Part shown: positions 564 through 19,165 of the stretch, piece after piece
How positions within the stretch are numbered: the first letter of the stretch is position 1
Layout of the letters: each line of letters opens with the position of its first letter
NCBI GenBank assembly: GCA_964619725.1
Contig: CAZUFC010000142.1
Span: forward strand, 1-19,346
Length of the DNA stretch: 19,346 nucleotides
Direction: 5' to 3'
Source of the DNA: an uncultured bacterium
GTDB lineage: Bacteria; CSSED10-310; CAZUFC01
The notes under the pieces: generated by a model
Told to the model about the DNA's origin: nothing
Seen by the model: only the letters and a program-made list of their open reading frames with translations
The model's database searches: none
Position numbers and translations under genes: made by a program

Positions 564-587
564 AATATTCTCGGAGGAATTGATCTT

Positions 588-800: not shown

Positions 801-828
801 TTGACAAAGCACAAATTTTGAATATTAT
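801..828 (+). promoter_or_regulatory. Sigma70-type promoter for the downstream operon
   Basis: Perfect -35 TTGACA (801-806), 16-bp spacer, -10 TATTAT (823-828; 5/6 match to TATAAT), A/T tracts upstream. Lies in the 726-886 intergenic gap, about 60 nt before oppD. Confidence 0.65.
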
Positions 829-886
829 TGATTAGACTTAATCGCTCGTTTGTGGGATTGGCAATGATATATTCCCGGTGGTATTG

Positions 887-2041
887 ATGGTTCAAAAAAT
901 TTTTCAGAAATCTTCAGAGATTAATTCTTCAAAGGTTTTAGAAGTTAAAGATTTAAAGGTTTACTATCATGACCAAAAGACGTCTGTTTTCACTCGTGCC
1001 GTGGACGGTGTTGGATTCTTAGTCGGAAAAGGAGATTGTTTCGCGATAGTCGGCGAATCCGGAAGCGGGAAAAGTACAACGGCTCATTGTTTACTCGGGC
1101 TCATCGAAGGCGTACCCGGCATTATTGATGGAGAAATTTATTATTATCCTTCACAGGATGATAAGGATTCGAAAAGAAATGCCGTTAATCTTCTTGAAGG
1201 CTTGTCGAAATTCACACGATACTATGATTATTCTGCGAAGAAAAATGGAAGGAAGGGCTTTATTATAAAGAAAAACAACAAGGCCTGGCAGAAGTTTTTT
1301 AGAAACAGGATGGAGAGTTATCTGGGCGAGCATTTTTCAATGATTTTCCAGGAGCATGTAGGAGCTCTTAATCCCATGCTGACAGTTGGCGAGCATTTAG
1401 AAGAAGTGATTAGAAACCGTCAGAGAAATGCAACGAAAAAAGATATCCAAAATGAGATGAAAAAATGGATGGATGAAATAAACCTTGATCCTTGCATAGT
1501 GGACTCATTTCCCGAAGAGTTATCCGGCGGTATGAGTCAGAGGATCATGACGGCTTTAGCCTTGGCTAACGAGCCTTGCGTGTTGATTTCTGATGAAGCG
1601 ACGACTAATCTTGATGCCGTTACATCGAAACTGATCCTTAATTTAATATTTCGGAAGCAGAAGGAACGGAATGCCTGCACTGTCTTGATATCACATGATC
1701 TTTCTCAGGTGGAGGATTATGCTGACGAGATAATGATTATGCTGAAAGGAAAGGCAGTAGAAATCGGGAGAAGGAGTCCTTTTCATCCAGAAAATCCCTA
1801 TTGGCAGCATCCTTACACACAATTTCTCATAAGGGAATATTATAAAAACCGGGTAGACAAGGTGGATTCAGAGCTTTATTTAAGAGACGGGGGGATGAAT
1901 GAGGAGGAAGGAGCTTGTCCTTTTTACGACAAACATTTGCGACTTGAACCAGGACTTTGTTGTCCCGGTAAAAATGAATTGCCTGAACTGAGGGAAACGG
2001 GTCCTGGTCATTTCACAAGATGTTTCAGTATTGGCGAATAA
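887..2041 (+). CDS. oppD: Oligopeptide/dipeptide ABC transporter ATP-binding protein, OppD/DppD family
   Basis: Walker A GESGSGKS, Q-loop SMIFQE, LNP..TVG, signature ELSGGMSQR, Walker B LISDE, H-loop ISHDL, C-terminal HPYT and Cys-rich tail (CPF...CC...GHFTRC). Start taken as ATG 887 (GGTGG at 877-881); the ORF track starts at GTG 878. The symbol is family-level; dppD fits equally well. Confidence 0.93.
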   Translation: MVQKIFQKSSEINSSKVLEVKDLKVYYHDQKTSVFTRAVDGVGFLVGKGDCFAIVGESGSGKSTTAHCLLGLIEGVPGIIDGEIYYYPSQDDKDSKRNAVNLLEGLSKFTRYYDYSAKKNGRKGFIIKKNNKAWQKFFRNRMESYLGEHFSMIFQEHVGALNPMLTVGEHLEEVIRNRQRNATKKDIQNEMKKWMDEINLDPCIVDSFPEELSGGMSQRIMTALALANEPCVLISDEATTNLDAVTSKLILNLIFRKQKERNACTVLISHDLSQVEDYADEIMIMLKGKAVEIGRRSPFHPENPYWQHPYTQFLIREYYKNRVDKVDSELYLRDGGMNEEEGACPFYDKHLRLEPGLCCPGKNELPELRETGPGHFTRCFSIGE

Positions 2042-2042
2042 A

Positions 2043-2921
2043 ATGAAAAACCGCGTTTTCGACATATTGACGATTGAACGCTTATGCAAATCATTTCCCC
2101 GCGTGATTTACAGCGACACGTTCCGGCAACGATCGATTAAAAATCATCATGCCGTTCGAAACGTTGACCTTTCGATAAGGAGAGGGGAATTTCTCGGATT
2201 AATCGGAGAAAGCGGAAGCGGAAAAACGACATTGGGACGTTTGATAGTGAGGCTAGAAGAGCCTGACGAAGGCAGGATATACTTTAATCACCAAAATATA
2301 TCGTATTACTCAACGCGACTTTTTCGTAAAGCGTTCAGCAGAAAGATACAACTGGTTTTCCAGAATCCCGAAGCAGCTTTAAATCCCGGTCAAAAGGCAG
2401 GTGAGGGAATACGCGACCTTATAGAATTGCATTATCCTGATCTAACCTCCGGTGAAACAAGAAAACAAACGATCAAACTTATTGAATCCGTAAGACTTCA
2501 TCCCGCTGAAAAATACTATCATAAGTATCCGCACCAATTGAGCGGGGGCGAAAAAAGACGACTCAGCCTGACCAGAGCCCTGGCCGTTGACCCGGACTTA
2601 TTGATAATCGATGAGCCTGCGGCGGAATTGGACCCTGCGGATCAGAACCTGGTCATCAACATTTTACGTGAATTGAGGAGAGAAAGAGATAAACAAAAAT
2701 TTCCTGTTTCCTCTTTGATTATTTCTCATGATTTGGGCATAATTAAGAAGATATGCGACAGCATTGCCGTTATGCACAAGGGGGAAATAATTGAAAAAAA
2801 CAGTAAAAGCCGATTGCTTCAGAATCCGATTGATCCGTACACGATTAAATTACTCGAAGCGTCGCTCTTGAAAAACTCTTTCAATACAGACGATTATTCA
2901 TTTAAACTAAACTTCGACTGA
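2043..2921 (+). CDS. oppF: Oligopeptide/dipeptide ABC transporter ATP-binding protein, OppF/DppF family (short form, no Cys tail)
   Basis: AVRNVDL, Walker A GLIGESGSGKTTLGR, IQLVFQNP..ALNP, YPHQLSGGEKRR, Walker B LIIDEP, ISHDL, P.DPYT..LL. ATG 2043 is 1 nt after the oppD stop (ORF track start is TTG 2031). Family-level symbol. Confidence 0.93.
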   Translation: MKNRVFDILTIERLCKSFPRVIYSDTFRQRSIKNHHAVRNVDLSIRRGEFLGLIGESGSGKTTLGRLIVRLEEPDEGRIYFNHQNISYYSTRLFRKAFSRKIQLVFQNPEAALNPGQKAGEGIRDLIELHYPDLTSGETRKQTIKLIESVRLHPAEKYYHKYPHQLSGGEKRRLSLTRALAVDPDLLIIDEPAAELDPADQNLVINILRELRRERDKQKFPVSSLIISHDLGIIKKICDSIAVMHKGEIIEKNSKSRLLQNPIDPYTIKLLEASLLKNSFNTDDYSFKLNFD

Positions 2922-2923
2922 TA

Positions 2924-4420
2924 ATGGCGTTTGAAATATTTAAGAAACCGGTTACTCTCCTTTTGATTTTAATGCTCTTATGCCTTGTATTTCTTCCCGT
3001 CGTTGAATCAAACCTGGATGAAGAAGATTTCTTAATGGTCTTCTTTGAAACATTGCGGTTGCCCGTATTGGGAAGGAACCTGAGAATCAAGGTGGGACTT
3101 TTCCATCCTGAAGGATTTGTCGCAGAATCCATCAGGATAATCAATCCGGAATTTAAGTGTGAAAGCATAAACTTATCTCATATTCATCGTGATGTGCTTG
3201 ATGTAGAATATTTCACGGGCATAATTCCAGAAGAATGTTTGACTCTGGGAGAAAACGCTTTCACAATTATCGCCGAAATTAAAAACGGCAGCAAACCTGT
3301 GCGCAAGAAATTGCCTTCTTTTTCTATTTCCAATGAAATTATTTTTTTGACTGAATTCCCTGCAGAACAAGTTTTTAAACTTAATGTCGAGGCGGATATT
3401 TATTCTAAGAATGGCATTTCAAGAATTCAGATATATGTTCGCCGTCAAAACAAACTTGATCTGGAAATTTTTGAAATGAAAGTATCGGCCTCTTCAGGCG
3501 GATTCCGATATAAGGCGCGAGGAGAAATAGGACATTCGTTGTTGAACGGGCCGATTGCCGAACTTTTCATTATGTTCTTCGATCGCGACTGGAATGGTCC
3601 GTTTGAATCAGAACACGTTTTTCTTAAAGGCGCAGCCCGTGATATTGAAATCTGTTTTTATCTTACTGACGAATCCGGTAAACCGATTATTGATTGCACT
3701 ATTCAAGTCGACGATCAAATTTTTCGTTCTAGTGATACTCTGGGAAGACATACTCTTGTTTGTCAGTCCAGGTCAGCACACGAAAAATTACATTTTACCG
3801 TAAAAGCAATCAATCACCTTCCAAAAACCGTAACTGTTCCCATCAGCATAAATCAAAATTCTTACTTACTGGATGAAGACCTCCGATTGCAGAGAGTTCC
3901 GTTACAGTTGAAGATCGATGTTTTCGATCAAAGCGGCAATCCCATTCCGGGCGCTTACGTTCAAGTTACAGACAGAAACGAAAATAAAAATTTCAATCAG
4001 ACGACAGATCGTAACGGATATTGCGAATTCATTCTCTCCTTTGAAAATTATAAAGATATCATTCTGGAAATAGATGCCCTGGGATTCGATGCAATAAGCG
4101 ACAAAGTTGATCTCAATGACGATATTCTGATTCAAAAAGATTATTATTTACCGGATGCATCACCCCTGGAAAGAATCTTCCTTTTTAAAGTCGTCGACAG
4201 TAATGGCAATAAGATCAGAAAAGTCAAAGTTTTTATTAACGGAAAACGTCTCGGAAAAACGAATGACAGAGGCATGTTAAATAAAAAAATCAGCTTTGCA
4301 GAAGGCGAAGAAATTTCGATCGAGTTTATACGAAAAAAATACATGAAGAAAGAAATTCTATTTATGATTGATGAAGAGTTGAACATACCGATTGCGGTGT
4401 GCTTGGAATCGAAAAAATGA
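2924..4420 (+). CDS. Exported or membrane-anchored protein with three C-terminal carboxypeptidase-regulatory/PEGA-like beta-sandwich repeats
   Basis: N-terminal KK + hydrophobic helix (VTLLLILMLLCLVFLPVV). Repeats LTDESGKPIIDCTIQV..SDTLG, VFDQSGNPIPGAYVQV..TTDRNG and VVDSNGNKIRKVKVFINGKRLGKTNDRG fit the V-D-x-x-G-x-P-I-x-x-A-x-V...T-D-x-x-G pattern. Starts 2 nt after the oppF stop. Confidence 0.8.
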   Translation: MAFEIFKKPVTLLLILMLLCLVFLPVVESNLDEEDFLMVFFETLRLPVLGRNLRIKVGLFHPEGFVAESIRIINPEFKCESINLSHIHRDVLDVEYFTGIIPEECLTLGENAFTIIAEIKNGSKPVRKKLPSFSISNEIIFLTEFPAEQVFKLNVEADIYSKNGISRIQIYVRRQNKLDLEIFEMKVSASSGGFRYKARGEIGHSLLNGPIAELFIMFFDRDWNGPFESEHVFLKGAARDIEICFYLTDESGKPIIDCTIQVDDQIFRSSDTLGRHTLVCQSRSAHEKLHFTVKAINHLPKTVTVPISINQNSYLLDEDLRLQRVPLQLKIDVFDQSGNPIPGAYVQVTDRNENKNFNQTTDRNGYCEFILSFENYKDIILEIDALGFDAISDKVDLNDDILIQKDYYLPDASPLERIFLFKVVDSNGNKIRKVKVFINGKRLGKTNDRGMLNKKISFAEGEEISIEFIRKKYMKKEILFMIDEELNIPIAVCLESKK

Positions 4421-4752
4421 AACTTTATTTTAAGAGAAGTCATCTGGGAACTGATCAAACATTGATTACAATTTTTATCCCCAAAAAAATCGGCCTATTG
4501 AAATCCCTATTAAAGAGAGAAACAGATACGGTAATGTCGATTCGAGTCGCTTGCGACGAAGTATGGACATTAGCGTATCAGGGATTGTTTGTCTCACCAT
4601 GGAAAAGGAATATCATATTGACCGTCCTAAATCTGTTCAGCCTCCTGCAGATATCTGACCGCGCACATTGTAACCTCGAAAAACGACTGTTTGATCAATA
4701 CCTTCCCCTGTCAAACAATTTCTTAAAGGAGAATCAGAATGAATTCTTATAA
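4417..4752 (+). CDS. Hypothetical protein (111 aa from ATG 4417); may instead be an intergenic spacer
   Basis: ATG overlaps the upstream stop as ATGA (4417-4420). The ORF fills the gap exactly and overlaps the next gene by 14 nt. No signal peptide or motif recognised. Confidence 0.4.
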   Translation: MKLYFKRSHLGTDQTLITIFIPKKIGLLKSLLKRETDTVMSIRVACDEVWTLAYQGLFVSPWKRNIILTVLNLFSLLQISDRAHCNLEKRLFDQYLPLSNNFLKENQNEFL

Positions 4753-5473
4753 AATCGTTTGTGCTGTTTTGCTTGTTCTAATCGTCAACGTCGGCTGCAA
4801 GAGTCAGCTTCAAAGAAAAATGCTGATAAGGAAAAACATTGAATTATCCTTGATTGAATTGGATGAGAACGGCAACGAGGTTAAAGAGATTATAACAGAC
4901 TCAGAACCGGTAACTTACAACTTGCCTGAAACATTATATTTCAAATTACTTCTGGAAAATAACCATGCAAAAAAGAAGTTCAAAAAATTATGGGTCGATT
5001 TGTATTTACCCAATTGCTTTGTTTATTCGTATAACTCTGAAAACCTTGATTCAACCTTGCTAAACAAAGAAGCGCATGAAAAAAAAATCGATACGGAATG
5101 GGTCCTGACCTGGCCTGTCGGCAAGGTAAATCCTGAAGAATCAGACGCTCTGATATTTCAGATAACGGGCTCTGAGTTGTACGATCACATTATCAGCAAT
5201 AAAAACAAAATCGTGCCGGTCACCGTTTATTTAAAACGAGGAAAAAAGTTAGACGTTGACAAAGAGGAATATAGAATACATTCATTCGTGACAGTAGTCA
5301 CTCCTCCAACTTTGTCTCAAATGGATGACCCTGATCTATCGGATGCGCCAACGGAGAAAATAACAGCGCCTACCATAAACACCGCTGCTTCAGGTGAGGA
5401 TGAAGTTCAAGGCGATGAAGCCAATGAAATGGAAGTTCAAACTGAAGAAAAAAATGAAAATTTCGTTTATTGA
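4739..5473 (+). CDS. Lipoprotein with a DUF11-like (Ig-like conserved repeat) domain and an acidic low-complexity tail
   Basis: RBS AAGGAG just upstream. Signal MNSYKIVCAVLLVLIVNVG|C20 (lipobox-like). ETLYFKLLLENN..LWVDLYLPNCFVY...LTWPVGKVNPEESDALIFQI follows the DUF11 pattern. Tail rich in P/T/D/E. Confidence 0.8.
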   Translation: MNSYKIVCAVLLVLIVNVGCKSQLQRKMLIRKNIELSLIELDENGNEVKEIITDSEPVTYNLPETLYFKLLLENNHAKKKFKKLWVDLYLPNCFVYSYNSENLDSTLLNKEAHEKKIDTEWVLTWPVGKVNPEESDALIFQITGSELYDHIISNKNKIVPVTVYLKRGKKLDVDKEEYRIHSFVTVVTPPTLSQMDDPDLSDAPTEKITAPTINTAASGEDEVQGDEANEMEVQTEEKNENFVY

Positions 5474-5529
5474 ACAGGAACCGGGAAAAACCTTAAACGT
5501 TTTCCTTTAGGATCAACCAGGAGTAAACA

Positions 5530-7764
5530 ATGAAAAATCGTTATCGCGTTATTCTAATTTATCTCTTTTGTATGGCCCTGATCTCATGCGAATCACCAAA
5601 CGAATTAAATTTTAAAATAACCGTTTATGATGAGAGTCAGAATCCGTTGTCTGATGTAACCGCAAGAGTAAACGGCATTCCTCTCGACGGCGTATCAGAC
5701 AGCTCTGGCGAATTGATTTCCTCAGTCAAAATTAAACCCGCCGATTTTTTACATTTCTCCACTTTCAAAAAGGGTTATGAAACGGCAGAAAAAAAGATCA
5801 GAATGGAAATAAACAAGTCGCTTTATGCTTCTACTTTCCTCATGAAAAAAACTGGCTATCGCATAAATTTAACTCTCAGAGCTCGAGATGAAGAAGGAAA
5901 TATAAGTCCTCTGACCAATGCGGATTTATTTGTCGCGGGTGAAAAAAAAGGTTCGACTGGCTTTGACGGGAAATTTCTTCTGTTTATTAACGACCTCGGA
6001 AAAAAAAATATAGATTTATTCGTTAACCATCCTTCATTTGTTGAAACTTTTGAACAGAATATCCCGCTTAATATTGAACAGTCATCATACGATAAAGAAA
6101 TCATTTTGGATGTTTATCCCGCCAGGAATTTTTATTTTCGATTTCGTAATAATAAAGCTGAACCTGTTGAGAGGCAAAAAATTATTATTTCTGACAAAGA
6201 GTTGTTTACTGATGAAGAAGGAAAAGCAGAAACAAGCATTCCGATTAAAAGCGGAGAAAAAATAGAAATTCAGTTTCCTGATTCGTCGATTTGTATGCCG
6301 AACTCCCGGACTATCTCAATTGAAAAGGATAAAGCCGATTATGATTTTAGCTTTACGCAAGGAGAGCCAGTCAGTGTTTCCCTATCCGTTTCCAATTATG
6401 AGACGGGCGCTCCTGTCGATGGGATTGAAATTAAAATAGTGAATAACCAAAGAACAATAGGTTTTACGAATGAGAACGGAGAACTTGAAAAAAGCGTGCT
6501 TTGTTTATGGGGAACGTTACCGGATGTGTTGAACATTGAAATGAATAAAAGAGGTTTTTTACCGACTACAGGGAAACTGGTTAATGCGGGAGAATTTTCA
6601 TATCGAGGAGCGTTTTCTGTCCGTCGTGCGCTTTTATTGTCTTTAGATGTAGCCTATGGAACGAATAACGGCAATGATCGTATTCCGGTTAGCGGCGCTG
6701 TCGTCAATGTAATAGGCAATTCAGGCGTAATCGAAGCTGAAACGGATAAAAACGGTAAATTTGAGAAAATACTCCCTGAAGAAGGATTTTATACTATAAA
6801 AGTTTATGATCGAAAAACTTCACAACAATATGAAGAGGTTATTAACATCGGGGAGGAAAAAACAGGTGTGCTGAGCATAACATTCAGCGCTGAATCTGCT
6901 GATCTGAGAATCGTAGCCCTTGACTCTGAAAACGAATCTGAAATTAATGGGATTTTCAGGCTTCTCGACAGCAACGGGGAAATTCAGCATACAGGAGTGT
7001 TAAACGAAAAAAAACCTTCACAGGTAAAAACCGGTTCGTATATCCTGATTATTGATTCAGAAGAATACAGCAATTATCAACAATTTGTCGATATTTCGGG
7101 TGACCGAGTCATTGAAGTAAAATTGTACAGGGATTACATAAAAAAAGGTCGAATATTGATCAACAATGATGAAGCGAAAAAAGCGCTCAGCGAGTTTAAC
7201 AAGGTAACGGAAAATAATGCAGAATACCCAAAGGCTCAATATTTTATGGCGATTTGTCATTTAAAGATGTCTGAAGAAACGGTTGTCGAAGAGGATAGAA
7301 AGACTCACGAAAAAGCGGCTCAAAGACATATACAGAATGCAATTACTCATGATAATGAACAGAATCCCAAATATTATCTCATTCTGTCGCGTTGCCATAT
7401 CAAGAAGGGCTATTATCCGGATGCCCTGGAAAGTTTAAAAGCAGCAAAAAGCAACCTCAAAAAAATTCCTGTTAAATCAAATGAAGCGATGAATTCTCAA
7501 GACGGTTATCGCGCTCAGATAATACTCTGGCAAGCATGGTGTCATGCATCAATGTCATCAAAGGACATTGCAAAAGTCAAAGATTGGGAGAAAGCTTCAA
7601 AATTCTACCAAGAGTATGAGTCTGTTTGCAATGACAATCAGAAGGTTGCCCGAGATGAGATGATTAACAGCCTGGCTACGGATGTAAAAACATTGATTGA
7701 AAAAGTTAAACAAGAGATGGACGAACAGAAGATTAACGAACAGGATATGGATGAAGAAACTTAA
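5530..7764 (+). CDS. Lipoprotein with 5-6 tandem carboxypeptidase-regulatory/PEGA-like beta-sandwich domains and C-terminal TPR repeats
   Basis: RBS AGGAG at 5519-5523. Lipobox LIS|C20. Repeats VYDESQNPLSDV..SDSSG, RDEEGNISPLTNA..TGFDG, RNNKAEPV..TDEEG, NYETGAPVDG..TNENG, PVSGAVV..TDKNG. TPR-like helices AQYFMAICHLKM and YYLILSRCHIKKGYYPDALESLKAA. Confidence 0.85.
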   Translation: MKNRYRVILIYLFCMALISCESPNELNFKITVYDESQNPLSDVTARVNGIPLDGVSDSSGELISSVKIKPADFLHFSTFKKGYETAEKKIRMEINKSLYASTFLMKKTGYRINLTLRARDEEGNISPLTNADLFVAGEKKGSTGFDGKFLLFINDLGKKNIDLFVNHPSFVETFEQNIPLNIEQSSYDKEIILDVYPARNFYFRFRNNKAEPVERQKIIISDKELFTDEEGKAETSIPIKSGEKIEIQFPDSSICMPNSRTISIEKDKADYDFSFTQGEPVSVSLSVSNYETGAPVDGIEIKIVNNQRTIGFTNENGELEKSVLCLWGTLPDVLNIEMNKRGFLPTTGKLVNAGEFSYRGAFSVRRALLLSLDVAYGTNNGNDRIPVSGAVVNVIGNSGVIEAETDKNGKFEKILPEEGFYTIKVYDRKTSQQYEEVINIGEEKTGVLSITFSAESADLRIVALDSENESEINGIFRLLDSNGEIQHTGVLNEKKPSQVKTGSYILIIDSEEYSNYQQFVDISGDRVIEVKLYRDYIKKGRILINNDEAKKALSEFNKVTENNAEYPKAQYFMAICHLKMSEETVVEEDRKTHEKAAQRHIQNAITHDNEQNPKYYLILSRCHIKKGYYPDALESLKAAKSNLKKIPVKSNEAMNSQDGYRAQIILWQAWCHASMSSKDIAKVKDWEKASKFYQEYESVCNDNQKVARDEMINSLATDVKTLIEKVKQEMDEQKINEQDMDEET

Positions 7765-8932
7765 GCAAAATTACAGAATGTTTTACATTTCAGCGGCTTG
7801 CTTATGCTTTGCCTGCATTTTTCCATCCGCCTTGAATTGTGAAGGGAATGCAGAGACATTAATCATATGCTTTTTCGATAAAATATCGGAATTACCCGTC
7901 AAAGATGTTCGCGTCTATTCAATCGATTCCAGAGGGAACTTTGCCTGGATTGGAAAAAGCGATGTGACCGGTCGAATTTCTCTCTCCATAACGGAAAATG
8001 CATACTCGGAAATTTTTGTTTCACATTCCAAATATAAATCATTCGAGATGATAATCGATTACTTCTTTAAAAATCAAAACAAAAAAGAAATAAAAATTCC
8101 TCTTTCTAGAAAAGAAGGGATTACGGTACACATAAACTGTTCAGCCGCTGACACTATGCAATCGATTCCGTGCGACTTAACTCTTAATGGGAACAAAGTA
8201 GGTGAATCCCCTGCAAAAATCAAGGTATTGGAAGGATATTATAATCTGAAAATTATTCCTTACAATTCGGTCGATTACAAAGCTGTATCATTGATGCATC
8301 CTTTTTATGAAAATAATCAAAAAATAGAATTCAAAATATTTCCAGACATCGAAAGAAATTTATTCGATTCTGAATTTACGGGAAATGAGACACATTTCAA
8401 TAAAATTATGCAAACTTTTTCAGATAATTCGATGACTTTCAACAATTTCAAATTTTTTATCAAGATTTTATCTTGTATTGATGAAAAAAATGAAATCACA
8501 GAAAATTTTCTTGAAAGCAGTCTGACAGGAAATCCTTTTTATAAAAAATTCATCAATTGTTATTTAGGGACTTACTATTTCAAAATCGGTGCATACGATA
8601 AAGCTGCAGGGTCATTTCGCGATTCAATAAATATAAGAGACGCCATTTTAAAGCAGGTTGATTTAAGTTCGGATCAGAAGGATTTTTTTCTTTTTCAAAG
8701 CTACCGGTATCGAGCTTTATGTTTGACGAAAGTTGCCGAAGAATGGAACGACGGTCTTTCTTCGAATAGAAAAATCCTGCGTGAGGCGATTAATGCATGG
8801 GAAGATTGCATATCTATTTTTCGGATTTACTCAGGATTGGAAGAAAAGGAGTCTATTTTTTCGGATTACCTTGAAACGGCTGAATATAAAAAGTCATTAT
8901 TGATCAATCTTTTAAATTCTAAGGAGGACTAA
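7751..8932 (+). CDS. Exported protein with beta-sandwich + PEGA domain + TPR
   Basis: ATG 7751 with AGGA at 7742-7745 (ORF track start 7697) gives a signal-like N-terminus MKKLKQNYRMFYISAACLCFACIFPSA. Repeat FFDKISELPVKDVRV..GKSDVTG. PEGA motif LTLNGNKVGESP.KIKVLEGYYNLKI. TPR YLGTYYFKIGAYDKAAGSFRDSI. Confidence 0.82.
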   Translation: MKKLKQNYRMFYISAACLCFACIFPSALNCEGNAETLIICFFDKISELPVKDVRVYSIDSRGNFAWIGKSDVTGRISLSITENAYSEIFVSHSKYKSFEMIIDYFFKNQNKKEIKIPLSRKEGITVHINCSAADTMQSIPCDLTLNGNKVGESPAKIKVLEGYYNLKIIPYNSVDYKAVSLMHPFYENNQKIEFKIFPDIERNLFDSEFTGNETHFNKIMQTFSDNSMTFNNFKFFIKILSCIDEKNEITENFLESSLTGNPFYKKFINCYLGTYYFKIGAYDKAAGSFRDSINIRDAILKQVDLSSDQKDFFLFQSYRYRALCLTKVAEEWNDGLSSNRKILREAINAWEDCISIFRIYSGLEEKESIFSDYLETAEYKKSLLINLLNSKED

Positions 8933-10625: not shown

Positions 10626-10630
10626 GTAAA

Positions 10631-11533: not shown

Positions 11534-11543
11534 GTTATTTATC

Positions 11544-12611
11544 ATGCTGCACCGTTCAATCTCATTTAATTGGAAAACATACAGAGAAATATTTAATTCT
11601 AAAAAAAAGAAATATGAAAAATTTTCTTTTTTCAGAATTCCTTCTTATTTTAAATTAATCCTGGGGATTTTTATCGCTTTTTTGTTTGTTGTTACGGCAA
11701 TGCTTGCTTATACGGTCGATTGGTCAGCCTCCGACAGCGCCTTTAAGGACTTCAAAGAACTATTTCCAGAAAATGACCATTTTGGTGTTTTTATACCCGG
11801 CAAAGCTATCAGAGGACATCCCCTCGGTTTCACAAGCGGAAAAAAGTATTTTGTAAGTTCTCTTGTTAAAGGGAGCGCAGCCTACATGCCTTCATGTTTT
11901 CTGGCAATCGCTGTGAATTGGATATTGGGGATAATTCTCGCCGTTATGGTCGGTTTTTATCCTGAAAAAAAACTAATTCCAAAAATCGGATTATTGACGA
12001 GGTTCAGCAATAAAAAGGCGACGCCTGGGAAAAAAGTTGATCATGTATATCGAGTCAGAGGACTGACTTGCGGAGAAGCGGCGCTGTCTTTCTCTCATCT
12101 GATTCAGTCAGTACCCAAAATCATTGGATTATTGCTAATATTGGGCATATTCTATCGTTCTGACAATCCGAACGTTCGTACGATCGTTCTGATGATATCG
12201 ATCGGCCTTTTTGCTTCTCCCAGAATGATGGAGACACTTGGATACCGCATCAGAAAATTTAAGAGAGAAAAATTCGTCGATGCTGCAAAAGCGGCAGGAT
12301 TCTCAGACTTTAATATCATATTTAAACAAATTTTCTGGAAAAACTGCCTGCCCCTATTCGTCGTCGAAATTTCCCGATTAATGGCTGAAATTTTCATTTT
12401 TGAAGCGGTCATGGCTTATCTTGGACTCGGAATATATGAACCTTACTGGAGTTGGGGCAGACTTGCGCAAGAGGAAATTGACTACGGCATGACTTTCGGT
12501 TTTATCAGAGGTTCATTGCATCCTTGCCTGTGCATTGCGTTTTTCTCTGTCGGATTTCTGATGCTGGGCGACGCAATAGCTGACATAAAGAGTTTAAACA
12601 GAGAGGGATAG
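11544..12611 (+). CDS. oppC: Peptide ABC transporter permease, OppC/DppC family (divergent)
   Basis: HPLG motif, EAA loop EKFVDAAKAAGFSDFNIIFKQI..NCLP, EAVMAYLGLG..EP..SWG, GF.MLGDAI.D. Start taken as ATG 11544 (ORF track start 11505). Confidence 0.9.
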   Translation: MLHRSISFNWKTYREIFNSKKKKYEKFSFFRIPSYFKLILGIFIAFLFVVTAMLAYTVDWSASDSAFKDFKELFPENDHFGVFIPGKAIRGHPLGFTSGKKYFVSSLVKGSAAYMPSCFLAIAVNWILGIILAVMVGFYPEKKLIPKIGLLTRFSNKKATPGKKVDHVYRVRGLTCGEAALSFSHLIQSVPKIIGLLLILGIFYRSDNPNVRTIVLMISIGLFASPRMMETLGYRIRKFKREKFVDAAKAAGFSDFNIIFKQIFWKNCLPLFVVEISRLMAEIFIFEAVMAYLGLGIYEPYWSWGRLAQEEIDYGMTFGFIRGSLHPCLCIAFFSVGFLMLGDAIADIKSLNREG

Positions 12612-12612
12612 A

Positions 12613-14430
12613 ATGATAACTATTAGAAATTTTTTAAAATTTTTCACATTAATTGCTTTTATTTTTGCTCTTTCAGTTCGTCCGGCTCCGGCAGACGAGG
12701 TAATGAAGGATTCTTATAAATTATTTGAAGAGAATAAATATTTTGATTTTGCCGTCAAAATGACGGAAGCGGCGAAAAATGACTCTTACAACCTCAGCAT
12801 GCCGGAGCGCGATAAACTGGCGCACGCTTTATTTTATCTCGGCTGGAGTGAGCTGGAATTTCACAAACTGGCTGTGGCGGCATGCGAGCGATATTACAAA
12901 ATCGTAAATCTGGAATTGTCTGCGGATAAAAAAACTCTTTCAGACGATATCAAATATAAAACGTCGAGAGGCATGCATAAAAATTCACGCTGGTCATTCG
13001 ATCAAGATGCGGATGCGATAGATTATTTCCTGGCGCTTGCTTATCAAGAAGCCGGGAGACATGATTCAGCGAAAAGGTATTTCGATTCCTTCTTAGAAAA
13101 TTGTCCCTCCGGTACCCGATTTTTTCAATATGCCAAAAACTTTTCGGTAAGATCGGAAATAAATTTGCCGAAATGTGAAAATCCTGTAACTTATTTTAAA
13201 AATTTACTTTCTGAAAGTATTTCGCATGCCGATGAAAATCTTCTAATATATCAAATTAAACGTTTCATTTCTGAGAACGAACACAGATACTGGATTGAAA
13301 ATCAATTACCCGGAAAGACAGATTTATTTCATGAGAATCAGAAAATAAAAGAAATTCAATCACAGTTACAACAATTGTTGGAAAACTGTAAAATCAAGGA
13401 TATAGTTATTCCGGGTCTAACAAACAAAAACGAAATCGAGCCATATTCCAGTTTTGTTGATTTCCAGGGCGAATGCATTAAAGTCTTTCTGGGGGATTCA
13501 TCTTTTTATTCCATAATGCCTGCCGTGAAAAGAATCAGGGATTTTTACCCGCATTATGAGGAACGCATGCGACGAATTTCCCCGGAAGCATACTGGGTAT
13601 TAGGAAATACTTTCCTCACAGCAGCGGAAAAGATTTATTCTGAATTAAAAAAAGATTGCGGCAAAAACGACAGAATTTACTTTACGAGTCAACTCTTAAG
13701 GTGCAAGCTTTTACGCGGGAACTATAAAGAAGCTGAGGATTTAATCACTGAAGAGAATGCCGCTTCAGAAAATAATCTTTATCCCTATAGTAAAGGAATA
13801 GTCAACGGCATTTCACGGTTTATAAACGGTTCTAAACCTCCTGACTTAAATGAGAAATCTCTTTCAAGAACTCATTCAGAAAAGTTGATAGAATTTGTTT
13901 ATTATCAATGGATTAAATCCACTTCTGGGAGAATGATAGGAGAAAAAGAAATTGATTTGCTGCATAAATCATTATTGCATATGGCCAAACGAGAATACAT
14001 GCATTTGACGGGAACTGAATCTAGAAAGCATAAGAGTAAAAAAGGGTCTTCCTCAGAAGAAATCCTGGAAAATTTTTTTTCTTATCGATGTTATCTTCTA
14101 TCGAATAAGCTGATCGAGGCGATTCTTTGTCTTACCGAAATACTGGAAAATAATACGGGCATTGAGATGAATTCAAAAGAAAAATATTTGTCCGAAAGAC
14201 AAAATTATTTAAGATCCGTAAGAAATCTTAAGCAATCAGGTTATAACAATCTAGCTTTAAACCACCCAATAGTAATGATCAAGACGGCACGCTTGAATTT
14301 TCTGATCGACGTTTTCACTTTTACTGAATATAATATGATTTTATCTTTGTTCTCTGAAAAAGAGTATATGCCGGAAGTAAGGCTTTTAAGAGACATCGTT
14401 AAATCGGTATCTCAATTTTCAAGCAAATAA
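12613..14430 (+). CDS. Secreted alpha-helical TPR-containing protein (605 aa)
   Basis: 1 nt after the oppC stop, GAGGG upstream. Signal peptide ending ..RPAPA|DE. TPR-like motifs YFLALAYQEAGRHDSAKRYFDSFLENCP, ALFYLGWSELE and LLRCKLLRGNYKEAEDLI. Confidence 0.8.
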   Translation: MITIRNFLKFFTLIAFIFALSVRPAPADEVMKDSYKLFEENKYFDFAVKMTEAAKNDSYNLSMPERDKLAHALFYLGWSELEFHKLAVAACERYYKIVNLELSADKKTLSDDIKYKTSRGMHKNSRWSFDQDADAIDYFLALAYQEAGRHDSAKRYFDSFLENCPSGTRFFQYAKNFSVRSEINLPKCENPVTYFKNLLSESISHADENLLIYQIKRFISENEHRYWIENQLPGKTDLFHENQKIKEIQSQLQQLLENCKIKDIVIPGLTNKNEIEPYSSFVDFQGECIKVFLGDSSFYSIMPAVKRIRDFYPHYEERMRRISPEAYWVLGNTFLTAAEKIYSELKKDCGKNDRIYFTSQLLRCKLLRGNYKEAEDLITEENAASENNLYPYSKGIVNGISRFINGSKPPDLNEKSLSRTHSEKLIEFVYYQWIKSTSGRMIGEKEIDLLHKSLLHMAKREYMHLTGTESRKHKSKKGSSSEEILENFFSYRCYLLSNKLIEAILCLTEILENNTGIEMNSKEKYLSERQNYLRSVRNLKQSGYNNLALNHPIVMIKTARLNFLIDVFTFTEYNMILSLFSEKEYMPEVRLLRDIVKSVSQFSSK

Positions 14431-14452
14431 GAAAGGATTCGGTTGCTCAACA

Positions 14453-17400
14453 ATGAACAGAAAAATAAAAACAGCAACCTTCGTCATTGAGGTTGTTTTA
14501 ACTTGTCTGAATTTCGTTACGGTTTCTGCGCATAAAACCGTACCGAGGATCACGCCGGATGGAAAATATGTTTCATTCCAGGAGTATGATTCAAGCGGGA
14601 AGCTTGGAATTTCAATATACGAAATAATGCAAAACGGCAAAATCAGCAAGATACCGAAAATCGATCTTTCTCTGCCCTTATATGAAACTGATTCATCAGA
14701 CGAAAGCGACGTCGCTTTCAGATTCGGCGAAATAAAAAAAACGACATCTAAAATTGAAAGAGAATCAACGGCTTTCTTTGCCTGGGCTCCGGACAGCCGC
14801 CATTATGTTTTTGAAAAATATACTTTAACAGGCAACGACCTTCATTTCGGTTCAATTGATGACACTGAAACTCAATCCGTTCGAATTACATTTGATGAAG
14901 AAATTGAACTAGACCCGCAATTCGCTCCTCTGTCTTTTCCTCCGGAAAGAAAGGATGAAAGTTATTTTTTCGTTGCTTTTTCCAAGCGAGGTTCTTTATT
15001 TATAGCCAGAATTCCAAAATCTGCGGGGAGTTATAATGATAAATCTGATAAAGTAGTCGTGAAGCAGGTCACTTTTGACACATCTTTTTCAGACTGTTAT
15101 CCGGAATGGCATCCTTCGGGATTGGGGCTGATCTTCTCTCGACGTACCTTAACCGGATATGATCTCTATTTTCTTGATTACAAAAAAATATTGAAATTTA
15201 TCCATTCGGAAAATGAAAACCTTTTTCTGGAAGATCAAGCTGAATGCTGCCTGAATCTCCCCTATTCCGATGAGCTCCACGGAGTCTTTTCGCCGAAAGG
15301 CTCCCGAATCGCCTATTTTTCCAATTTAACTCATCCGAACAACAGAAAATTATTTAATATTCACATTTCCTGGTTCTGGAATCCGGAAAACTGGAAGAGA
15401 AAAACGATCGGCAAAAAACCTGCTTTTTCGGACCTGCACACTGATGAGCCGGTACTAACAGAACAGACAATTCCGTTAGGCCCATCCTGGTCTCCCGACG
15501 GCGCTTTTTTGACTTATATCGCCAACAAACCCAATCTTGATTACCCGTTAGTCGTTTGTCGGTCGTTTAATCCAAAAACAAAAGCTTACGCAAAATCGAT
15601 TACAAACAACGTTAATTGCGCTTTTTTTCCATGTAGCGAAAGGAGTAAGGTTTGTTTACTTACTTGCCGCAAGGAATCTAAAGGTTTGAATATTGTTGCA
15701 GATTCTTTTGACGTTCTGTCGAAGTCAACCAGAAAAACGGAGGAAGAGCTTTACAGATTTATCGAATCCACTCAAGCGTTCGAACAAAGCTTCAGTTTCA
15801 AATTAGTTGATTATCACACCGGGATTCCAGTAAAAAATGCTGAATTCGAATTTTCGGAAAATCATAGCGCAGGATGCTTTTATTCAAGTTTGCTTGATGG
15901 TTACGTATGCGGCCTCTACAGGTCACCAGGCAATTTAATCGAAAACTCTTTACTGGTAGAATGGAAGAAAGACGGTAAACCTGCGGACACATCATTTTAC
16001 AATTTAAATCTGAAGTCGCTCAAAAACAGCGAATTATACGTTTTTGAACCGTTGTATGAAATAGTCCAGTTCAGGAAAGAAGCCCTGCAAGATGCGAGCG
16101 GAAAAAAACTTGATATTTCAAAAGAGAACATCGAAGTAGAAATACTATCCCAAAAAAGGGACAAAAAAGGTAATAATTTGGAAATAGTTGAACTCGATCA
16201 TGAGCAATTCAAAATCGCATTCCCTGATTCGATGTTCGGAAAAACGTGCAAACTTGAGTTGAACATTGAGGGTTATTCGCTTCCTTACAGTAATGAACTT
16301 GAGGGAAATTCTGCTGCAATCAATATAGGCAGCAGGGCTTCCGGCGGAATATTTGATCTGAGGATCGTAAAAAAATACTTGGAGAGAGACATTTTTATCG
16401 TTAATGGCGGAGTAACGCCATTCGGAATCGATAATTGGCCCGTTGCAGATGCCGTCATAGAGATACGCAATAAATTTATAGAATCAAAAACGTTCAACAC
16501 TGGAAAGGATGGTCGTGTCAGAATAAAAATTCATGAAGCAAATAAAAACGAAACTAAAATATCAGCTTCAGGCTTTGAAGCCGTGAATTTGGATCCCGCT
16601 TACTTAAAAAATAATCCCGATATGAAGGTCCTGCTTACGCCCAGAAATAATAAATGGATATTCTGGATTCGGGATTCTCAGGGGCACGTGCTTCATGATG
16701 CTAAAGTGCAAATAAAAATGGGAATCGGACGACACAACAAAATGTTAAAATTTTCAGATGAGCCACACGATATCGATTTTCCTTTCTCATACTCAACTTT
16801 CTGTAATTCCGATAAGCCCCTGGTTTTTGAATTACCATTTCCAAAACCGATTCCAAACTATTATTCCGGAAAAATCACCATTGAGCATTCGGCATGCAGG
16901 AACGGTGAAAAGATTATCGATATAAAAGATATTGACACTAATTTGGAAATCAATTTCATCTGTGTCGGGAACCCCGATGAGCTCCAGGGAATATTGTTAT
17001 ATCTCATTGATGAAGATGGGCATCCGGTATATGATGCCGGATTCAGGCAAACTGGAGGAAGTACTCTCGGCTTAAAACAGTCGGTCAGCCTTGAGGCTGG
17101 AGCTTATTTAATTAAAGACATTTCTTCTTTAAATGAATTGGAAATTGAATGTCCTGATTTCCAGAAAAAAGATGAACGCGCTGTTAAAATTGTCAGGGAT
17201 AAAATATACGCCGTAAAATTAAAAAAAATAGCACAGAAAAACAGCCATTCATCGAAATATAGAAAAATCAAAATAAAAACTTATTGCACCTTGAAAATTT
17301 ATGAAGACCTTCCTCGTTTTAAAGGGTTGCCCGAGGATTTCTTCAACAGGAAAATATTTTTGCCGTACGTAAGATTGTCCGTAAGTTATTGTCCTAATAA

Positions 17401-18397
17401 ACACGAGAATAAAAACATAATATCGAAATTTTATGAAACATCAAAAAACGGAGAAATAATTCTAAGGCTTCCTGAAAACTGTTCTGATTTAGAAGTTTCA
17501 TTAGATCAAACAGGATTTAATCATAAAGAATCTTACTTCCCAGAGGATAACGCATTTATTGAAATTGAAGTAAAATCAAACGACTGCAATTCATTCATTG
17601 ACTTGTACGGTGAAAATTCATGTCTGCTCCTGCGAGAATTAACTGACGGAAAATTGAAGACTCTCATGGATGCATTGGAACAAAAAACTGAAATAAATAC
17701 TAGCGTTTTAGCATTTGCCGAATCCATGAATTTGAAAAACCGAAGCGGAAATGTCACGCTCGTTAATAAATTTCCACCCTTTATCGGTTTTTCCAGTGAT
17801 GAGATAAAAAGACATTTTTGTGAATTACCGTTTAAATTTAATTTTTTTTCTACGATACCGTATATTATTGATAAAAAAATGCAGCTAATAAAATCAGATG
17901 ATAAAATATCATTCGTTGAATTATTGTCGCGACTTGAAATCGAAGGTCTTATGAGCAAGAAAGACTGGAGGGAATTTTATGTTCTTAATCATAAACTCAT
18001 CAATCAAAGAGGCGGCGGGTTCTACCCGTACTTCAGAAAATATGACATCATATTTGTACCCGATAAGAGACAAATGAAAGAGTTTTTGCATTCTGAAAGT
18101 GAGTATTCTGTTCCATTCAAAATTCCTGAAAAAAAGCCTCCTGATTTTCATAACCGAAACTTGGATTCGGAGACCAACCCACGATTAAGTTTTCCCCAGC
18201 ATCCAGACGAATACAAGCTTAAAAGAATATTCAAATGCTGGTTTGGAGCAAGGGGCTACGACGCACATATTAGGAGTCAAAAACGAAAAGTGAAAAAGAA
18301 ATACAAGGAAGAAGACATAATAGAGCTGGTTCTCGACAAAAAAATCATAAAAAGGATAAATGAAAAAATTAAGCCGCCAATAAAGTCATTCTTTTGA
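14453..18397 (+). CDS. Large exported protein (1314 aa): TolB/PD40-type beta-propeller, tandem beta-sandwich repeats, possible C-terminal LysM-like domain
   Basis: Signal ..FVTVSA|H. PD40-like blades ITPDGKYVSF, WAPDSRHYVF, PQFAP, YPEWHPSGLGLIFS, VFSPKGSRIAYFS, PSWSPDGAFLTYI. Repeats LVDYHTGIPVKNA, PVADAVIEI..TGKDG, IRDSQGHVLHDA, LIDEDGHPVYDA, ETSKNG. Not tolB itself: no TolB N-terminal domain and no tol-pal context. Confidence 0.85.
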   Translation: MNRKIKTATFVIEVVLTCLNFVTVSAHKTVPRITPDGKYVSFQEYDSSGKLGISIYEIMQNGKISKIPKIDLSLPLYETDSSDESDVAFRFGEIKKTTSKIERESTAFFAWAPDSRHYVFEKYTLTGNDLHFGSIDDTETQSVRITFDEEIELDPQFAPLSFPPERKDESYFFVAFSKRGSLFIARIPKSAGSYNDKSDKVVVKQVTFDTSFSDCYPEWHPSGLGLIFSRRTLTGYDLYFLDYKKILKFIHSENENLFLEDQAECCLNLPYSDELHGVFSPKGSRIAYFSNLTHPNNRKLFNIHISWFWNPENWKRKTIGKKPAFSDLHTDEPVLTEQTIPLGPSWSPDGAFLTYIANKPNLDYPLVVCRSFNPKTKAYAKSITNNVNCAFFPCSERSKVCLLTCRKESKGLNIVADSFDVLSKSTRKTEEELYRFIESTQAFEQSFSFKLVDYHTGIPVKNAEFEFSENHSAGCFYSSLLDGYVCGLYRSPGNLIENSLLVEWKKDGKPADTSFYNLNLKSLKNSELYVFEPLYEIVQFRKEALQDASGKKLDISKENIEVEILSQKRDKKGNNLEIVELDHEQFKIAFPDSMFGKTCKLELNIEGYSLPYSNELEGNSAAINIGSRASGGIFDLRIVKKYLERDIFIVNGGVTPFGIDNWPVADAVIEIRNKFIESKTFNTGKDGRVRIKIHEANKNETKISASGFEAVNLDPAYLKNNPDMKVLLTPRNNKWIFWIRDSQGHVLHDAKVQIKMGIGRHNKMLKFSDEPHDIDFPFSYSTFCNSDKPLVFELPFPKPIPNYYSGKITIEHSACRNGEKIIDIKDIDTNLEINFICVGNPDELQGILLYLIDEDGHPVYDAGFRQTGGSTLGLKQSVSLEAGAYLIKDISSLNELEIECPDFQKKDERAVKIVRDKIYAVKLKKIAQKNSHSSKYRKIKIKTYCTLKIYEDLPRFKGLPEDFFNRKIFLPYVRLSVSYCPNKHENKNIISKFYETSKNGEIILRLPENCSDLEVSLDQTGFNHKESYFPEDNAFIEIEVKSNDCNSFIDLYGENSCLLLRELTDGKLKTLMDALEQKTEINTSVLAFAESMNLKNRSGNVTLVNKFPPFIGFSSDEIKRHFCELPFKFNFFSTIPYIIDKKMQLIKSDDKISFVELLSRLEIEGLMSKKDWREFYVLNHKLINQRGGGFYPYFRKYDIIFVPDKRQMKEFLHSESEYSVPFKIPEKKPPDFHNRNLDSETNPRLSFPQHPDEYKLKRIFKCWFGARGYDAHIRSQKRKVKKKYKEEDIIELVLDKKIIKRINEKIKPPIKSFF

Positions 18398-18439
18398 CGA
18401 ATCAGTTTTATCAGATTCAACAAGGAGGATAATTGCAAT

Positions 18440-19165
18440 ATGAATAATAAACATAATGAGAAATTCGATAATTACCCTTTGCCGGAAGGATCGGATTTTT
18501 TCGAAACGAGTCAACAAGCAACGACTATGACAATTCTGAAAAAAAGAAAATCCAGCGGTAAAAGAATTTTTGGTTTATCTGTACTGATCATTCTCCCTCT
18601 AATCATTTTCGGACTTTATTACCTGCTCTTAGTATATGATAAAATTGAAAACGCTCAAAAAGCAGAAAAAATCGATGACTTTGATCCTACATCCGTAATG
18701 GTTAAATTGAATCGGAAAAATGATGACTCTAAAAATGAATTTGTTGGAACTTGCCTTTCAGAAAATTATGTTCTGAGCCGAATGAACGATGCGTACAAAT
18801 TTTCCAGTTTCTATATTGAAACAACAGATGGAATTAAGGAAAATGTGTCCGTCATAGATTACGACGGATATTCAAAACTCTGCATATTGAAAACGAATAG
18901 ATCAGAATTTAATCCCCATTTGAAACCCACTCGTTTCGGGTTTTTCGAACAGAACGCAGACTCGATAATTCTCATCGATAAAGGAAATTTTAAGCGTTAC
19001 GATTCTGAAATGGCGATGGCTGCCTTTACGAAGAACAAAAAAGAAGAAGAATGGGGGATTCTTCTGGACAAATACCACGCCGTCATCGGGATTATTTTCT
19101 GGCCTGATCCGCAAAATTACGATTATGCATTTTTGCCCATAAACGCGTTAACAAGAGATTTTTGA
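18440..19165 (+). CDS. Single-pass membrane protein with a degenerate trypsin-like (HtrA/S1C-like) domain, probably non-catalytic
   Basis: Strong RBS AAGGAGG at 18422-18428. KKRKSSGKR precedes TM IFGLSVLIILPLIIFGLYYLLLVY. S1C scaffold motifs occur in the right order: SVMVK, VGTCLSENYVLS, VIDYD...LCILK, G.LLD...AVIGI, YAFLPI. Confidence 0.75.
   Translation: MNNKHNEKFDNYPLPEGSDFFETSQQATTMTILKKRKSSGKRIFGLSVLIILPLIIFGLYYLLLVYDKIENAQKAEKIDDFDPTSVMVKLNRKNDDSKNEFVGTCLSENYVLSRMNDAYKFSSFYIETTDGIKENVSVIDYDGYSKLCILKTNRSEFNPHLKPTRFGFFEQNADSIILIDKGNFKRYDSEMAMAAFTKNKKEEEWGILLDKYHAVIGIIFWPDPQNYDYAFLPINALTRDF

Follow-up and report, generated by a model that had tools for sequence, protein, structure and literature searches.

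The window analysed here is the whole stretch of DNA of 19,346 nucleotides (nt) that forms one complete contig (CAZUFC010000142.1, C142 in our numbering) in the genome bin of an uncultured bacterium, a bin of 9.17 Mb in 344 contigs. It carries 12 co-directional genes, numbered g1 to g3 and g5 to g13, and all long open reading frames (ORFs) between 878 and 19165 lie on the forward strand, as read from the ORF list and the translations. These genes encode the five parts of a transporter of the ATP-binding cassette (ABC) type and the Opp/Dpp kind, i.e., two ATPases, a family-5 substrate-binding protein (SBP) and two permeases, among lipoproteins and other exported or membrane-anchored proteins. 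It is considered reasonably probable that a recurrent gene cassette is present in the window as a rearranged copy that has diverged strongly; in this cassette a subfamily of PepT-type importers is tied to exported, non-catalytic partners. The cassette is apparently undescribed; no description of it was found in the full-text literature of open-access papers and preprints.

Regarding the ABC core, g1 (878..2041, likely start ATG 887) encodes an OppD-type ATPase (ABC_tran, expect value E 8e-21). Its translation reads Walker A GESGSGKST, signature LSGGMSQR, Walker B DEATT and H-loop ISHDL, and its top NCBIfam rows are CntF, CntD, GsiA, OppD and NikD, each under its cut-off. The next gene, g2 (2031..2921, likely start ATG 2043), encodes a NikE/OppF-type ATPase with intact catalytic motifs (ABC_tran, E 4.3e-31; NikE, E 2.4e-56, under cut-off). 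Pfam and NCBIfam matches of window proteins were listed at E ≤ 0.01, a threshold at which g5, g7 and g13 have none and at which Pfam gives no oligo_HPY domain (PF08352) for g1 or g2. This domain is present on the cassette ATPases of two other genomes (G002 and G004) and on a further ATPase pair of the same genome; NikE-type ATPases likewise lack it. At the usual place of oligo_HPY, the C-terminus of g1 (window 1900-2041) is Cys-rich, with the pattern C-x13-CC-x22-C; some OppD/F proteins bind an Fe-S cluster in the region where oligo_HPY normally lies. The SBP gene g8 (8997..10625) matches PF00496 with E 1.4e-48 and 166 bits against a cut-off of 32.4, and the best match of its product among 5.8 billion proteins is merely 25% identical. 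Permease B (g9, 10622..11533) and permease C (g10, 11505..12611, likely start ATG 11544) score 25.4 and 23.3 bits, respectively, against the BPD_transp_1 cut-off of 26.4; their Opp2B (E 1.4e-17) and Opp4C (E 2.2e-19) rows are far under the NCBIfam cut-offs. An earlier note, made from the letters of the window, had recognized here the separated parts of an Opp/Dpp transporter. The Opp/Nik ATPases and the family-5 SBP are borne out by Pfam and NCBIfam, the permeases falling just short of the Pfam cut-off, and the ATPases (878-2921) are indeed set apart from the SBP and permeases (8997-12611), with about 7.7 kb between ATPases and permeases. None of the named equivalogs (OppA-F, DppA-F, NikA-E, GsiA-D, SapA-F, CntA-F, YejF) is reached by NCBIfam cut-off. 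Since all these equivalog scores are far under the cut-offs (e.g., NikA 92 vs 393; OppD 148 vs 575), no substrate can be assigned by homology.

The recurrent cassette consists of a CarboxypepD_reg protein, famA, PD40, famC, a family-5 SBP, permease B, permease C, ATPase D and ATPase F, where famA, PD40B and famC are the three families into which the accessory proteins sort in an all-against-all comparison. FamA is a lipoprotein with a beta-sandwich part (PEGA/CarboxypepD_reg) and a C-terminal TPR module. PD40B is a beta-propeller resembling those of S9 peptidases and TolB, without a catalytic domain. FamC is an all-TPR lipoprotein of about 480 residues, with a lipobox visible in the member P0036; its gene is the immediate upstream neighbour of the SBP gene, in many cases with an overlap.

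Most accessory proteins of the window can be related to this set, some of them only tentatively. The exported beta-sandwich protein g3 (2924..4420) has a hydrophobic N-terminus and a CarboxypepD_reg domain (PF13620, E 1.5e-8, 35.3 bits vs cut-off 32.3), and is matched by BLASTP to the N-terminal beta-sandwich part of the famA protein on contig C135 of the same genome (E 3e-6). The lipoprotein g6 (5530..7764; lipobox LISC) is famA-like, with a beta-sandwich array and a C-terminal TPR module: Pfam gives CarboxypepD_reg (E 6.1e-9) plus TPR matches, hhalign against the famA profile A7 gives a probability of 74.8% (E 2.6e-5) with an equivalent C-terminal TPR module, and BLASTP reaches the N-terminus of the famA of genome G010 (E 8e-5). 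A second, weaker famA-like exported protein would be encoded by g7 (7697..8932, likely start ATG 7751), for which A7 gives a probability of 39.8% (E 3e-4) with an equivalent C-terminal motif and BLASTP a match to the PEGA region of the C135 famA (E 0.002). The PEGA domain that the earlier note had assigned to g7, together with TPRs, appears in Pfam below threshold only (E 0.04, 14.3 bits vs cut-off 20.8). The exported TPR protein g11 (12613..14430; weak Pfam TPR matches) is a probable, diverged famC. Its residues 3-175 are aligned to the broad famC-like profile A8 (81.6%, E 1.1e-5) and a PEVR motif is kept at the famC-equivalent C-terminal position; the famC tail GG..(K/R/Y)I is lacking, and the gene is downstream of permease C rather than upstream of the SBP. 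A feature search of the protein atlas led from g11 to generic TPR clusters, with recognition under the reliable level. Finally, g12 (14453..18397) encodes an exported PD40 propeller followed by about 900 residues of unassigned sequence; residues 1-499 match the PD40B profile A1 at 211-409 (92.7%, E 4.4e-7), Pfam PD40 and TIGR02800 are both sub-threshold, and residues 683-1314 give no Pfam match even at E ≤ 5.

Two proteins of the row fall outside these families. The probable lipoprotein g5 (4739..5473) has a Shine-Dalgarno-like sequence before ATG 4739, an N-terminus ending in ...VNVGC and an acidic, low-complexity C-terminus, with no Pfam or NCBIfam match and no paralogue within its own genome; DUF11, by which it had been named earlier, finds no Pfam match even at E ≤ 5. 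The last gene, g13 (18440..19165), encodes a membrane-anchored protein with a modelled hydrophobic helix at residues 41-74. Its single-sequence model is poor (predicted local distance difference test, pLDDT, 42.5, and below 50 outside that helix); with Pfam and NCBIfam blank at the listing threshold, and Pfam also at E ≤ 5, its former designation as a pseudo-protease has nothing to recommend it.

Gene spacings were computed from the start codons picked as likeliest: +1 or -11 nt for g1/g2, +2 for g2/g3, +56 for g5/g6, -14 for g6/g7, +64 for g7/g8, -4 for g8/g9, +10 for g9/g10, +1 for g10/g11, +22 for g11/g12 and +42 for g12/g13. Their range is -14 to +64 nt when the gap between g3 and g5 is set aside. 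This gap is filled by a dispersed repeat of about 256 nt (4447..4702) resembling a miniature inverted-repeat transposable element (MITE), with 15-nt terminal inverted repeats (4447-4461 and 4688-4702) and an internal 17-nt hairpin (4525-4579); blastn gives it 26 more matches, spread over 23 other contigs on both strands with 71-91% identity. Rfam matched no family in the window, this repeat included. An ORF at 4399-4752 overlies the MITE-like repeat and was rejected as a gene; it is spurious, and therefore the g3-g5 gap is 318 nt. The same-strand row with gaps of at most about 65 nt claimed earlier, which counted this ORF (there from 4417), consequently holds outside the repeat, where the maximum is 64 nt, and fails across it. 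A sigma-70-like, promoter-like site precedes the cluster on the forward strand (801..828, TTGACA-16-TATTAT) and is the top site of the window with 11 of 12 matches, a match to consensus only; the promoter proposed there earlier is the same. The absence of a convincing internal terminator was also confirmed, 12 terminator-like sites being found in the window against 16.2 expected, none of them intergenic and all 12 within ORFs. Judging from the spacing, the whole cluster may form a single operon.

The cassette was found at two further loci of the same genome, on contigs C135 and C13. C135, which carries the nearest within-genome relative of the window SBP, has a co-directional row of a BamB-like propeller, a CarboxypepD_reg protein, a famA (PEGA/CarboxypepD_reg plus TPR), PD40, a TPR famC and a family-5 SBP, i.e., accessory genes and SBP without membrane parts. 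The C13 row is complete, with a CarboxypepD_reg protein, a beta-sandwich/TPR famA-like protein, PD40, a 483-residue protein, a TPR+SH3b protein, the family-5 SBP, permease B, permease C and two ATPases, and from a 417-residue ORF onward its gaps are of a few nt. On contig C87 (29-7064), cassette-type permeases B and C are found without SBP or ATPases, beside two sulfatase genes and a gene for a 537-residue protein of no family; these permeases could serve as the membrane parts for the C135 SBP. On contig C64 (6526-10969), an orphan Opp-type ATPase pair with oligo_HPY stands ahead of ExbB, ExbD, ExbD and TonB, all sharing one strand and separated by short gaps, a layout that would be an unusual coupling of an inner-membrane ABC module with outer-membrane TonB energy modules.

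In the same phylum, SBP neighbourhoods revealed cassettes in three other genomes. G010:C9 carries CarboxypepD_reg, CarboxypepD_reg+TPR, PD40, a 491-residue protein, the family-5 SBP, two permeases and two ATPases; G004:C38 carries TPR, PD40, a 504-residue protein and the same five ABC genes; G002:C517 carries PD40 and the five ABC genes. G002:C389 and G004:C217 hold accessory genes and the SBP without membrane parts. Of the 14 genomes of the phylum, four show strong matches to famC and PD40B.

Beyond the phylum, a HMMER search of 1.84 billion proteins with famC gave 40 representatives at E ≤ 1e-3, four of them below 1e-30, and many of the 40 end in approximately QG(I/V)YA-x3-4-(K/R)-x-(A/G)G-x-x-(K/R/Y)-I-x at the extreme C-terminus. 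The profile A8, built from 12 distant famC members, was then searched in genomes, and in a broad sample of 401 genomes it hit 11 with E ≤ 1e-8. Neighbourhoods were inspected for G172, G331 and G180, each from another phylum, the other seven hits being weaker (E 2e-10 to 6.5e-9). By phylum, A8 matches occur in one of two genomes for that of G172, one of 168 for that of G331 and seven of 25 for that of G180. G172 presents, over two contigs, a BamB-like protein, a PEGA/TPR famA, PD40, famC, the family-5 SBP, permeases B and C and an ATPase, in the order of C135. G331 has famA, PD40, a 2,623-residue immunoglobulin (Ig)-repeat protein, famC and the SBP before the contig ends. This Ig-repeat protein (G331:C208 2931-10799; Invasin_D3, Big_1, Filamin and BatD/DUF11-like), placed between PD40 and famC, recalls the extension of g12. 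G180 has a Ser/Thr kinase, PP2C, CarboxypepD_reg, a 611-residue protein, PD40 and famC before the contig ends. Among seven further loci in the phylum of G180, three are complete cassettes (G570, G573, G574) and two are cut by contig ends (G569, G571:C103). The famC stop and SBP start overlap or abut in G010, G172 and G331, and over the 15 loci hit by the famC hidden Markov model the family-5 SBP is the next gene downstream in 12, hidden by a contig end in one and absent in two. The genomes covered number 785; the cassette is rare, and its loci belong to at least four lineages of phylum rank whose bacteria are mostly uncultured.

A pattern scan with PD40B gave a smaller yield. Among 58 loci in genome contigs, four were cassettes, all from the window's own phylum; among 58 loci in metagenome contigs none was, and 53 had PD40 alone or nothing. 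That the pattern is too narrow is shown by the famC-based search made afterwards, in which cassettes of other phyla came up. At two scanned loci of Dehalococcoidia type (L066 and L121), a PD40 protein lies beside divergent opp permeases and a distant family-5 SBP; since this SBP falls outside the cassette clade, the association is probably unrelated.

The SBPs were compared in trees. In one computed by IQ-TREE with the LG+G4 model, from which three duplicate rows and three distant SBPs on long branches, all from the window's own genome, were left out, eight cassette SBPs and an orphan (G002:C17), whose row was not joined to the group until an initial tree had been inspected, form one clade against 18 other family-5 SBPs, with ultrafast bootstrap and SH-like approximate likelihood ratio test (SH-aLRT) supports of 100/100. 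When six SBPs from other phyla are included, 14 cassette SBPs from at least three phyla and the orphan make a 15-row clade (SH-aLRT 100) against 19 others, and in each tree the window SBP stands inside the cassette clade, on a long branch (1.5-1.7). At the level of sequence, these trees show a common descent of the cassette SBPs. As for the other subunits, five cassette permeases C form one clade (SH-aLRT 91), g9 belongs to a starred 6-row set with four other cassette permeases B and that of C87, and g1 to a starred 8-row set with five cassette ATPases. A phylogeny of the ABC subunits, recommended by the earlier note as a check, is thus clear for permease C and less resolved for permease B and the ATPases, whose trees are compatible with the cassette clade.

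The gene association and its recurrence are plain from these loci: exported, non-enzymatic scaffold families, which the earlier note had supposed to belong with the ABC core in this one operon, are found at three loci of the same genome, in three other genomes of the phylum and in three other phyla, around one SBP clade. The neighbourhood check that it advised bears out the recurrence of SBP-linked accessory families across phyla, and the closest homologues carry accessory genes rather than lying in ordinary operons devoid of them. What had been put forward as the defining feature, the interleaving of ATPases, scaffold genes and permeases, did not survive this comparison. At least eight cassettes, the window counted, hold all five ABC genes, and in every other full cassette these are contiguous, in the order SBP-permease B-permease C-ATPase-ATPase, with the accessory genes upstream. 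The window is unique in its split order, and has two famA-like genes and a propeller fused to about 900 further residues. The conserved feature is the accessory set, and the split order is a local rearrangement or accident, because modules are mobile elsewhere in the genome (C135, C87, C64). In such a course of events the ATPase pair would have moved to the front, the famC-like and propeller genes would have moved behind the permeases, and a mobile repeat would have landed between g3 and g5.

The gene order is not an obvious assembly chimera, because contigs bridge the relevant stretches and junctions. Those of the best-matching sequencing run span 86-4572 and 14920-19321 with zero differences, and the junctions g1/g2, g6/g7, g7/g8 and g10/g11 are crossed by pieces from two further samples in the same study. 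The contigs of the source-like run break in the MITE-like repeat, at 4549-4572. Both ends of the window (1-115 and 19297-19346) are high-copy dispersed repeats, with a read depth about five times that of the interior; the left repeat is matched 12 more times, on 11 other contigs, and the right one 21 times, on 19, many at contig ends. One contig shows a weak joint from 115 to 19297, for which a repeat artefact is the likeliest explanation. Both ends being dispersed repeats, the cluster may run on past g13.

A physical link between one accessory family and the SBP is suggested by complex prediction. The SBP (residues 37-588) and famC (26-472) of G010 were modelled together, each with its own alignment, and the model supports binding, with a median score of 0.73 where the best of three controls reached 0.01. 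The score mark applied is reached by 116 of 157 solved complexes and by two of 215 mismatched pairs, counts to be taken as approximate, own alignments having been used here. The runs share at least 85% of contacts, with a partner pLDDT of at least 57. On famC, the predicted interface comprises residues 110-113 and 426-472, the latter corresponding to the C-terminal helices and tail, which are the best-conserved part of the family, the tail being conserved to its last residues. On the SBP, the contacts of lowest error are at residues 49-54 and 480-500, which we take to correspond, by motif position, to the two segments of OppA that hold the ligand backbone. If this mapping holds, the famC tail is modelled inside the peptide cleft. 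In OppA, Asp-419, Arg-413 and Val-415 are ligand contacts (PMC3173086). The model supports a docking of famC on the SBP via its last TPRs and conserved extreme C-terminal tail. The screen of accessory proteins against the SBP that had been advised earlier is in this respect encouraging for famC, from a single pair, that of G010.

ABC importers are textbook five-part machines, and to our knowledge hardly any dedicated periplasmic partner of an ABC binding protein has been described; the main precedent is the TPR protein of treponemal TRAP transporters. In the TPATs of Treponema pallidum, a tripartite ATP-independent periplasmic (TRAP) transporter reportedly works with a TPR lipoprotein, TatT (Tp0956), that binds the SBP TatP (PMC10942540, citing Brautigam et al. 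2012). With its SBP importer and dedicated periplasmic TPR lipoprotein, this system as presented there is the nearest precedent for the predicted famC-SBP pair. Unlike the cassette, it is a TRAP rather than an ABC system; famC has about double the length of its counterpart, and propeller and beta-sandwich proteins come in addition. No window protein matches the Pfam family of TatT (PF16811) or TRAP subunits at E ≤ 0.01.

The closest known machinery by core composition is the PepT family (Opp/Dpp/Nik, TC 3.A.1.5; E. coli OppABCDF), with which the cassette shares a family-5 SBP and a pair of ATPases whose motifs are intact, besides two permeases that in the window come close to the BPD_transp_1 cut-off. 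Compared with the known PepT importers, the cassette SBPs form their own clade, the equivalog scores of the window are far under the cut-offs, and fixed exported accessory genes precede the SBP. Tol-Pal also combines, in an envelope context, a periplasmic PD40 propeller (TolB) with a TPR protein (CpoB/YbgF), and TolB is among the best structural matches of PD40B. In contrast to that system, no Pal or TolQRA is found in the cassettes, g12 scores 18.7 bits against a TolB (TIGR02800) cut-off of 343, and S9 propellers fit better. The PD40B model (pLDDT 71.5, predicted TM-score 0.75) reaches TMq values of 0.53-0.58 against S9-peptidase propellers and 0.38-0.42 against TolB, the matches after the S9 peptidases being TolB, DPP-IV, prolyl oligopeptidase and tricorn. 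The genome has a true TolB on C58 (399.5 bits) plus Omp85 proteins, which makes the bacterium a diderm and the propeller of the cassette something other than TolB. A relationship to the Bat aerotolerance operon (TPR, TPR+SH3, BatD) was considered and dropped, no vWA or MoxR genes having been seen in the cassettes, although no formal search was aimed at them.

An SBP-dependent transporter of the PepT type is an importer by architecture. Most likely, the cassette serves to import, by way of its SBP, a peptide-like ligand that a scaffold in the periplasm passes on. This scaffold, made up of the lipoproteins and the propeller, would capture or present the ligand there, or would tether and gate the SBP; the loaded SBP would then hand the ligand to the permeases for ATP-driven import. 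Nothing points to the export, surface-structure assembly or mechanotransmission entertained in the earlier note.

With regard to the ligand, a cell-wall origin is a reasoned guess from context, drawn from PASTA, kinase/PP2C and SH3b neighbours and from the MppA-OppBCDF precedent. PASTA Ser/Thr kinases such as PrkC and PknB sense muropeptides. The place directly upstream of the cassette is taken by a Hanks-type kinase in G180, G568, G570 and G573, accompanied by PP2C in the first three, and by a PASTA-domain protein in G571:C154 and G574, six loci in all within the phylum of G180; a kinase is also upstream in G010. Unlike in PrkC and PknB, kinase and PASTA are on separate proteins at these loci, and neither is in the three cassettes of the window's own genome. 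An SH3b domain is inserted in four SBPs, among them those of G010, G002:C517 and G002:C17. This SH3b-like insertion, of about 75 residues, occurs in SBPs of G010, G002 and G004 and is absent from the three of the window's genome, where C13 has an SH3b pair on a separate TPR protein adjoining the SBP. In E. coli, MppA is an orphan SBP that shares the OppBCDF permease set and serves murein tripeptide (PMC3173086, PMC10622912). It could further be imagined, as a quite unlikely elaboration, that the famC tail is a tethered pseudo-ligand in the SBP cleft, famC together with a catalytically empty, S9/TolB-like propeller holding the SBP at the envelope until cell-wall-derived peptides displace the tail, coupling import to kinase/PASTA signalling.

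Several points weigh against reading the window as a diverged copy of such a cassette, or against parts of that reading. Its gene order is unlike that of every other cassette, the famC-like gene is not upstream of the SBP, and a repeat interrupts the cluster. The links of its accessory proteins to the cassette families come from profile comparisons of moderate strength: g11 has no match to the closer famC profile A2 (hhalign, E 0.14), and g11 and g12 find no sequence homologue in the 13 other genomes of the phylum or among 5.8 billion proteins. The long branch of the window SBP could inflate its placement in the clade. Modules can exist apart, as the clade SBP G002:C17 has no accessory genes nearby, and G568:C303 and G571:C154 have PD40 and famC with no SBP nearby. 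The complex was predicted for the pair of another genome, G010, rather than for that of the window, and the tail in the cleft may reflect the model's memory of SBP-peptide structures. Finally, the cell-wall idea is a hint from neighbouring domains absent from the window, no kinase or PASTA gene being present in the window or beside the C135 and C13 cassettes.

A nutritional role is possible, if unlikely. The beta-sandwich, TPR and propeller lipoproteins would then collect proteins or oligopeptides from the environment, in the manner of the surface glycan-binding proteins found next to Sus transporters, and supply them to an otherwise ordinary importer of oligopeptides, with the cell wall and signalling playing no role; only the ligand and the part given to the kinase separate this from the scaffold-assisted import preferred here. 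The nearest solved structures to the cassette SBP profile are indeed peptide binders, the oligopeptide and dipeptide binders AppA (1xoc, E 6.9e-79) and DppA, the PD40 model comes nearest to the propeller by which S9 oligopeptidases gate their substrates, and the C64 ATPase pair with ExbB-ExbD-ExbD-TonB would fit the uptake of large substrates across both membranes. What speaks against plain nutrition is that none of the cassettes examined has a gene for a peptidase or another catabolic enzyme, an absence that the earlier note had remarked on in the window, and that the recurrent kinase plus PP2C, PASTA neighbours and SH3b inserts would be unexpected.

It is distinctly improbable that the cassette is a signalling or envelope-homeostasis module, in which the accessory proteins and kinase/PASTA would be the sensor and the SBP a receptor gated by the famC tail, transport being secondary or lost in some copies. 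Such a module could account for the two loci with PD40-famC and kinase/PP2C or PASTA that are without SBP or ABC genes, for the SBP loci without permeases or ATPases (C135, G004:C217, G002:C389), and for a famC tail conserved to the last residues and modelled against the SBP. However, the five ABC genes are retained in at least eight cassettes, among them the window with its intact ATPase motifs, and the three cassettes of this genome do without kinase or PASTA genes. A chance or historical juxtaposition, by which a diverged opp operon was broken up among functionally unrelated exported-protein genes, is scarcely credible: the window accessory proteins are orphans at sequence level, a mobile repeat lies inside the cluster and repeats bound the contig, and exported proteins are very numerous in this 9-Mb genome, where TPR, PD40 and CarboxypepD_reg domains are common, but four phyla have the same families next to one SBP clade with the gene order maintained, g12, g6 and g11 have profile links to them, and the spacing outside the repeat insertion is -14 to +64 nt.

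The tie between one SBP subfamily and a fixed set of TPR, propeller and beta-sandwich proteins would add a new, testable accessory layer to peptide-type ABC transport, and large "hypothetical" TPR and propeller families gain names and a context. The kinase, PASTA and SH3b surroundings suggest a link between peptide import and cell-wall sensing in diderms, in which PASTA kinases are little studied. As a minor observation on the window itself, a small ORF of 45 residues (587-724) follows a GGAGG Shine-Dalgarno sequence between g0 and the promoter-like site, and its product would have an acidic N-terminus and one hydrophobic helix.

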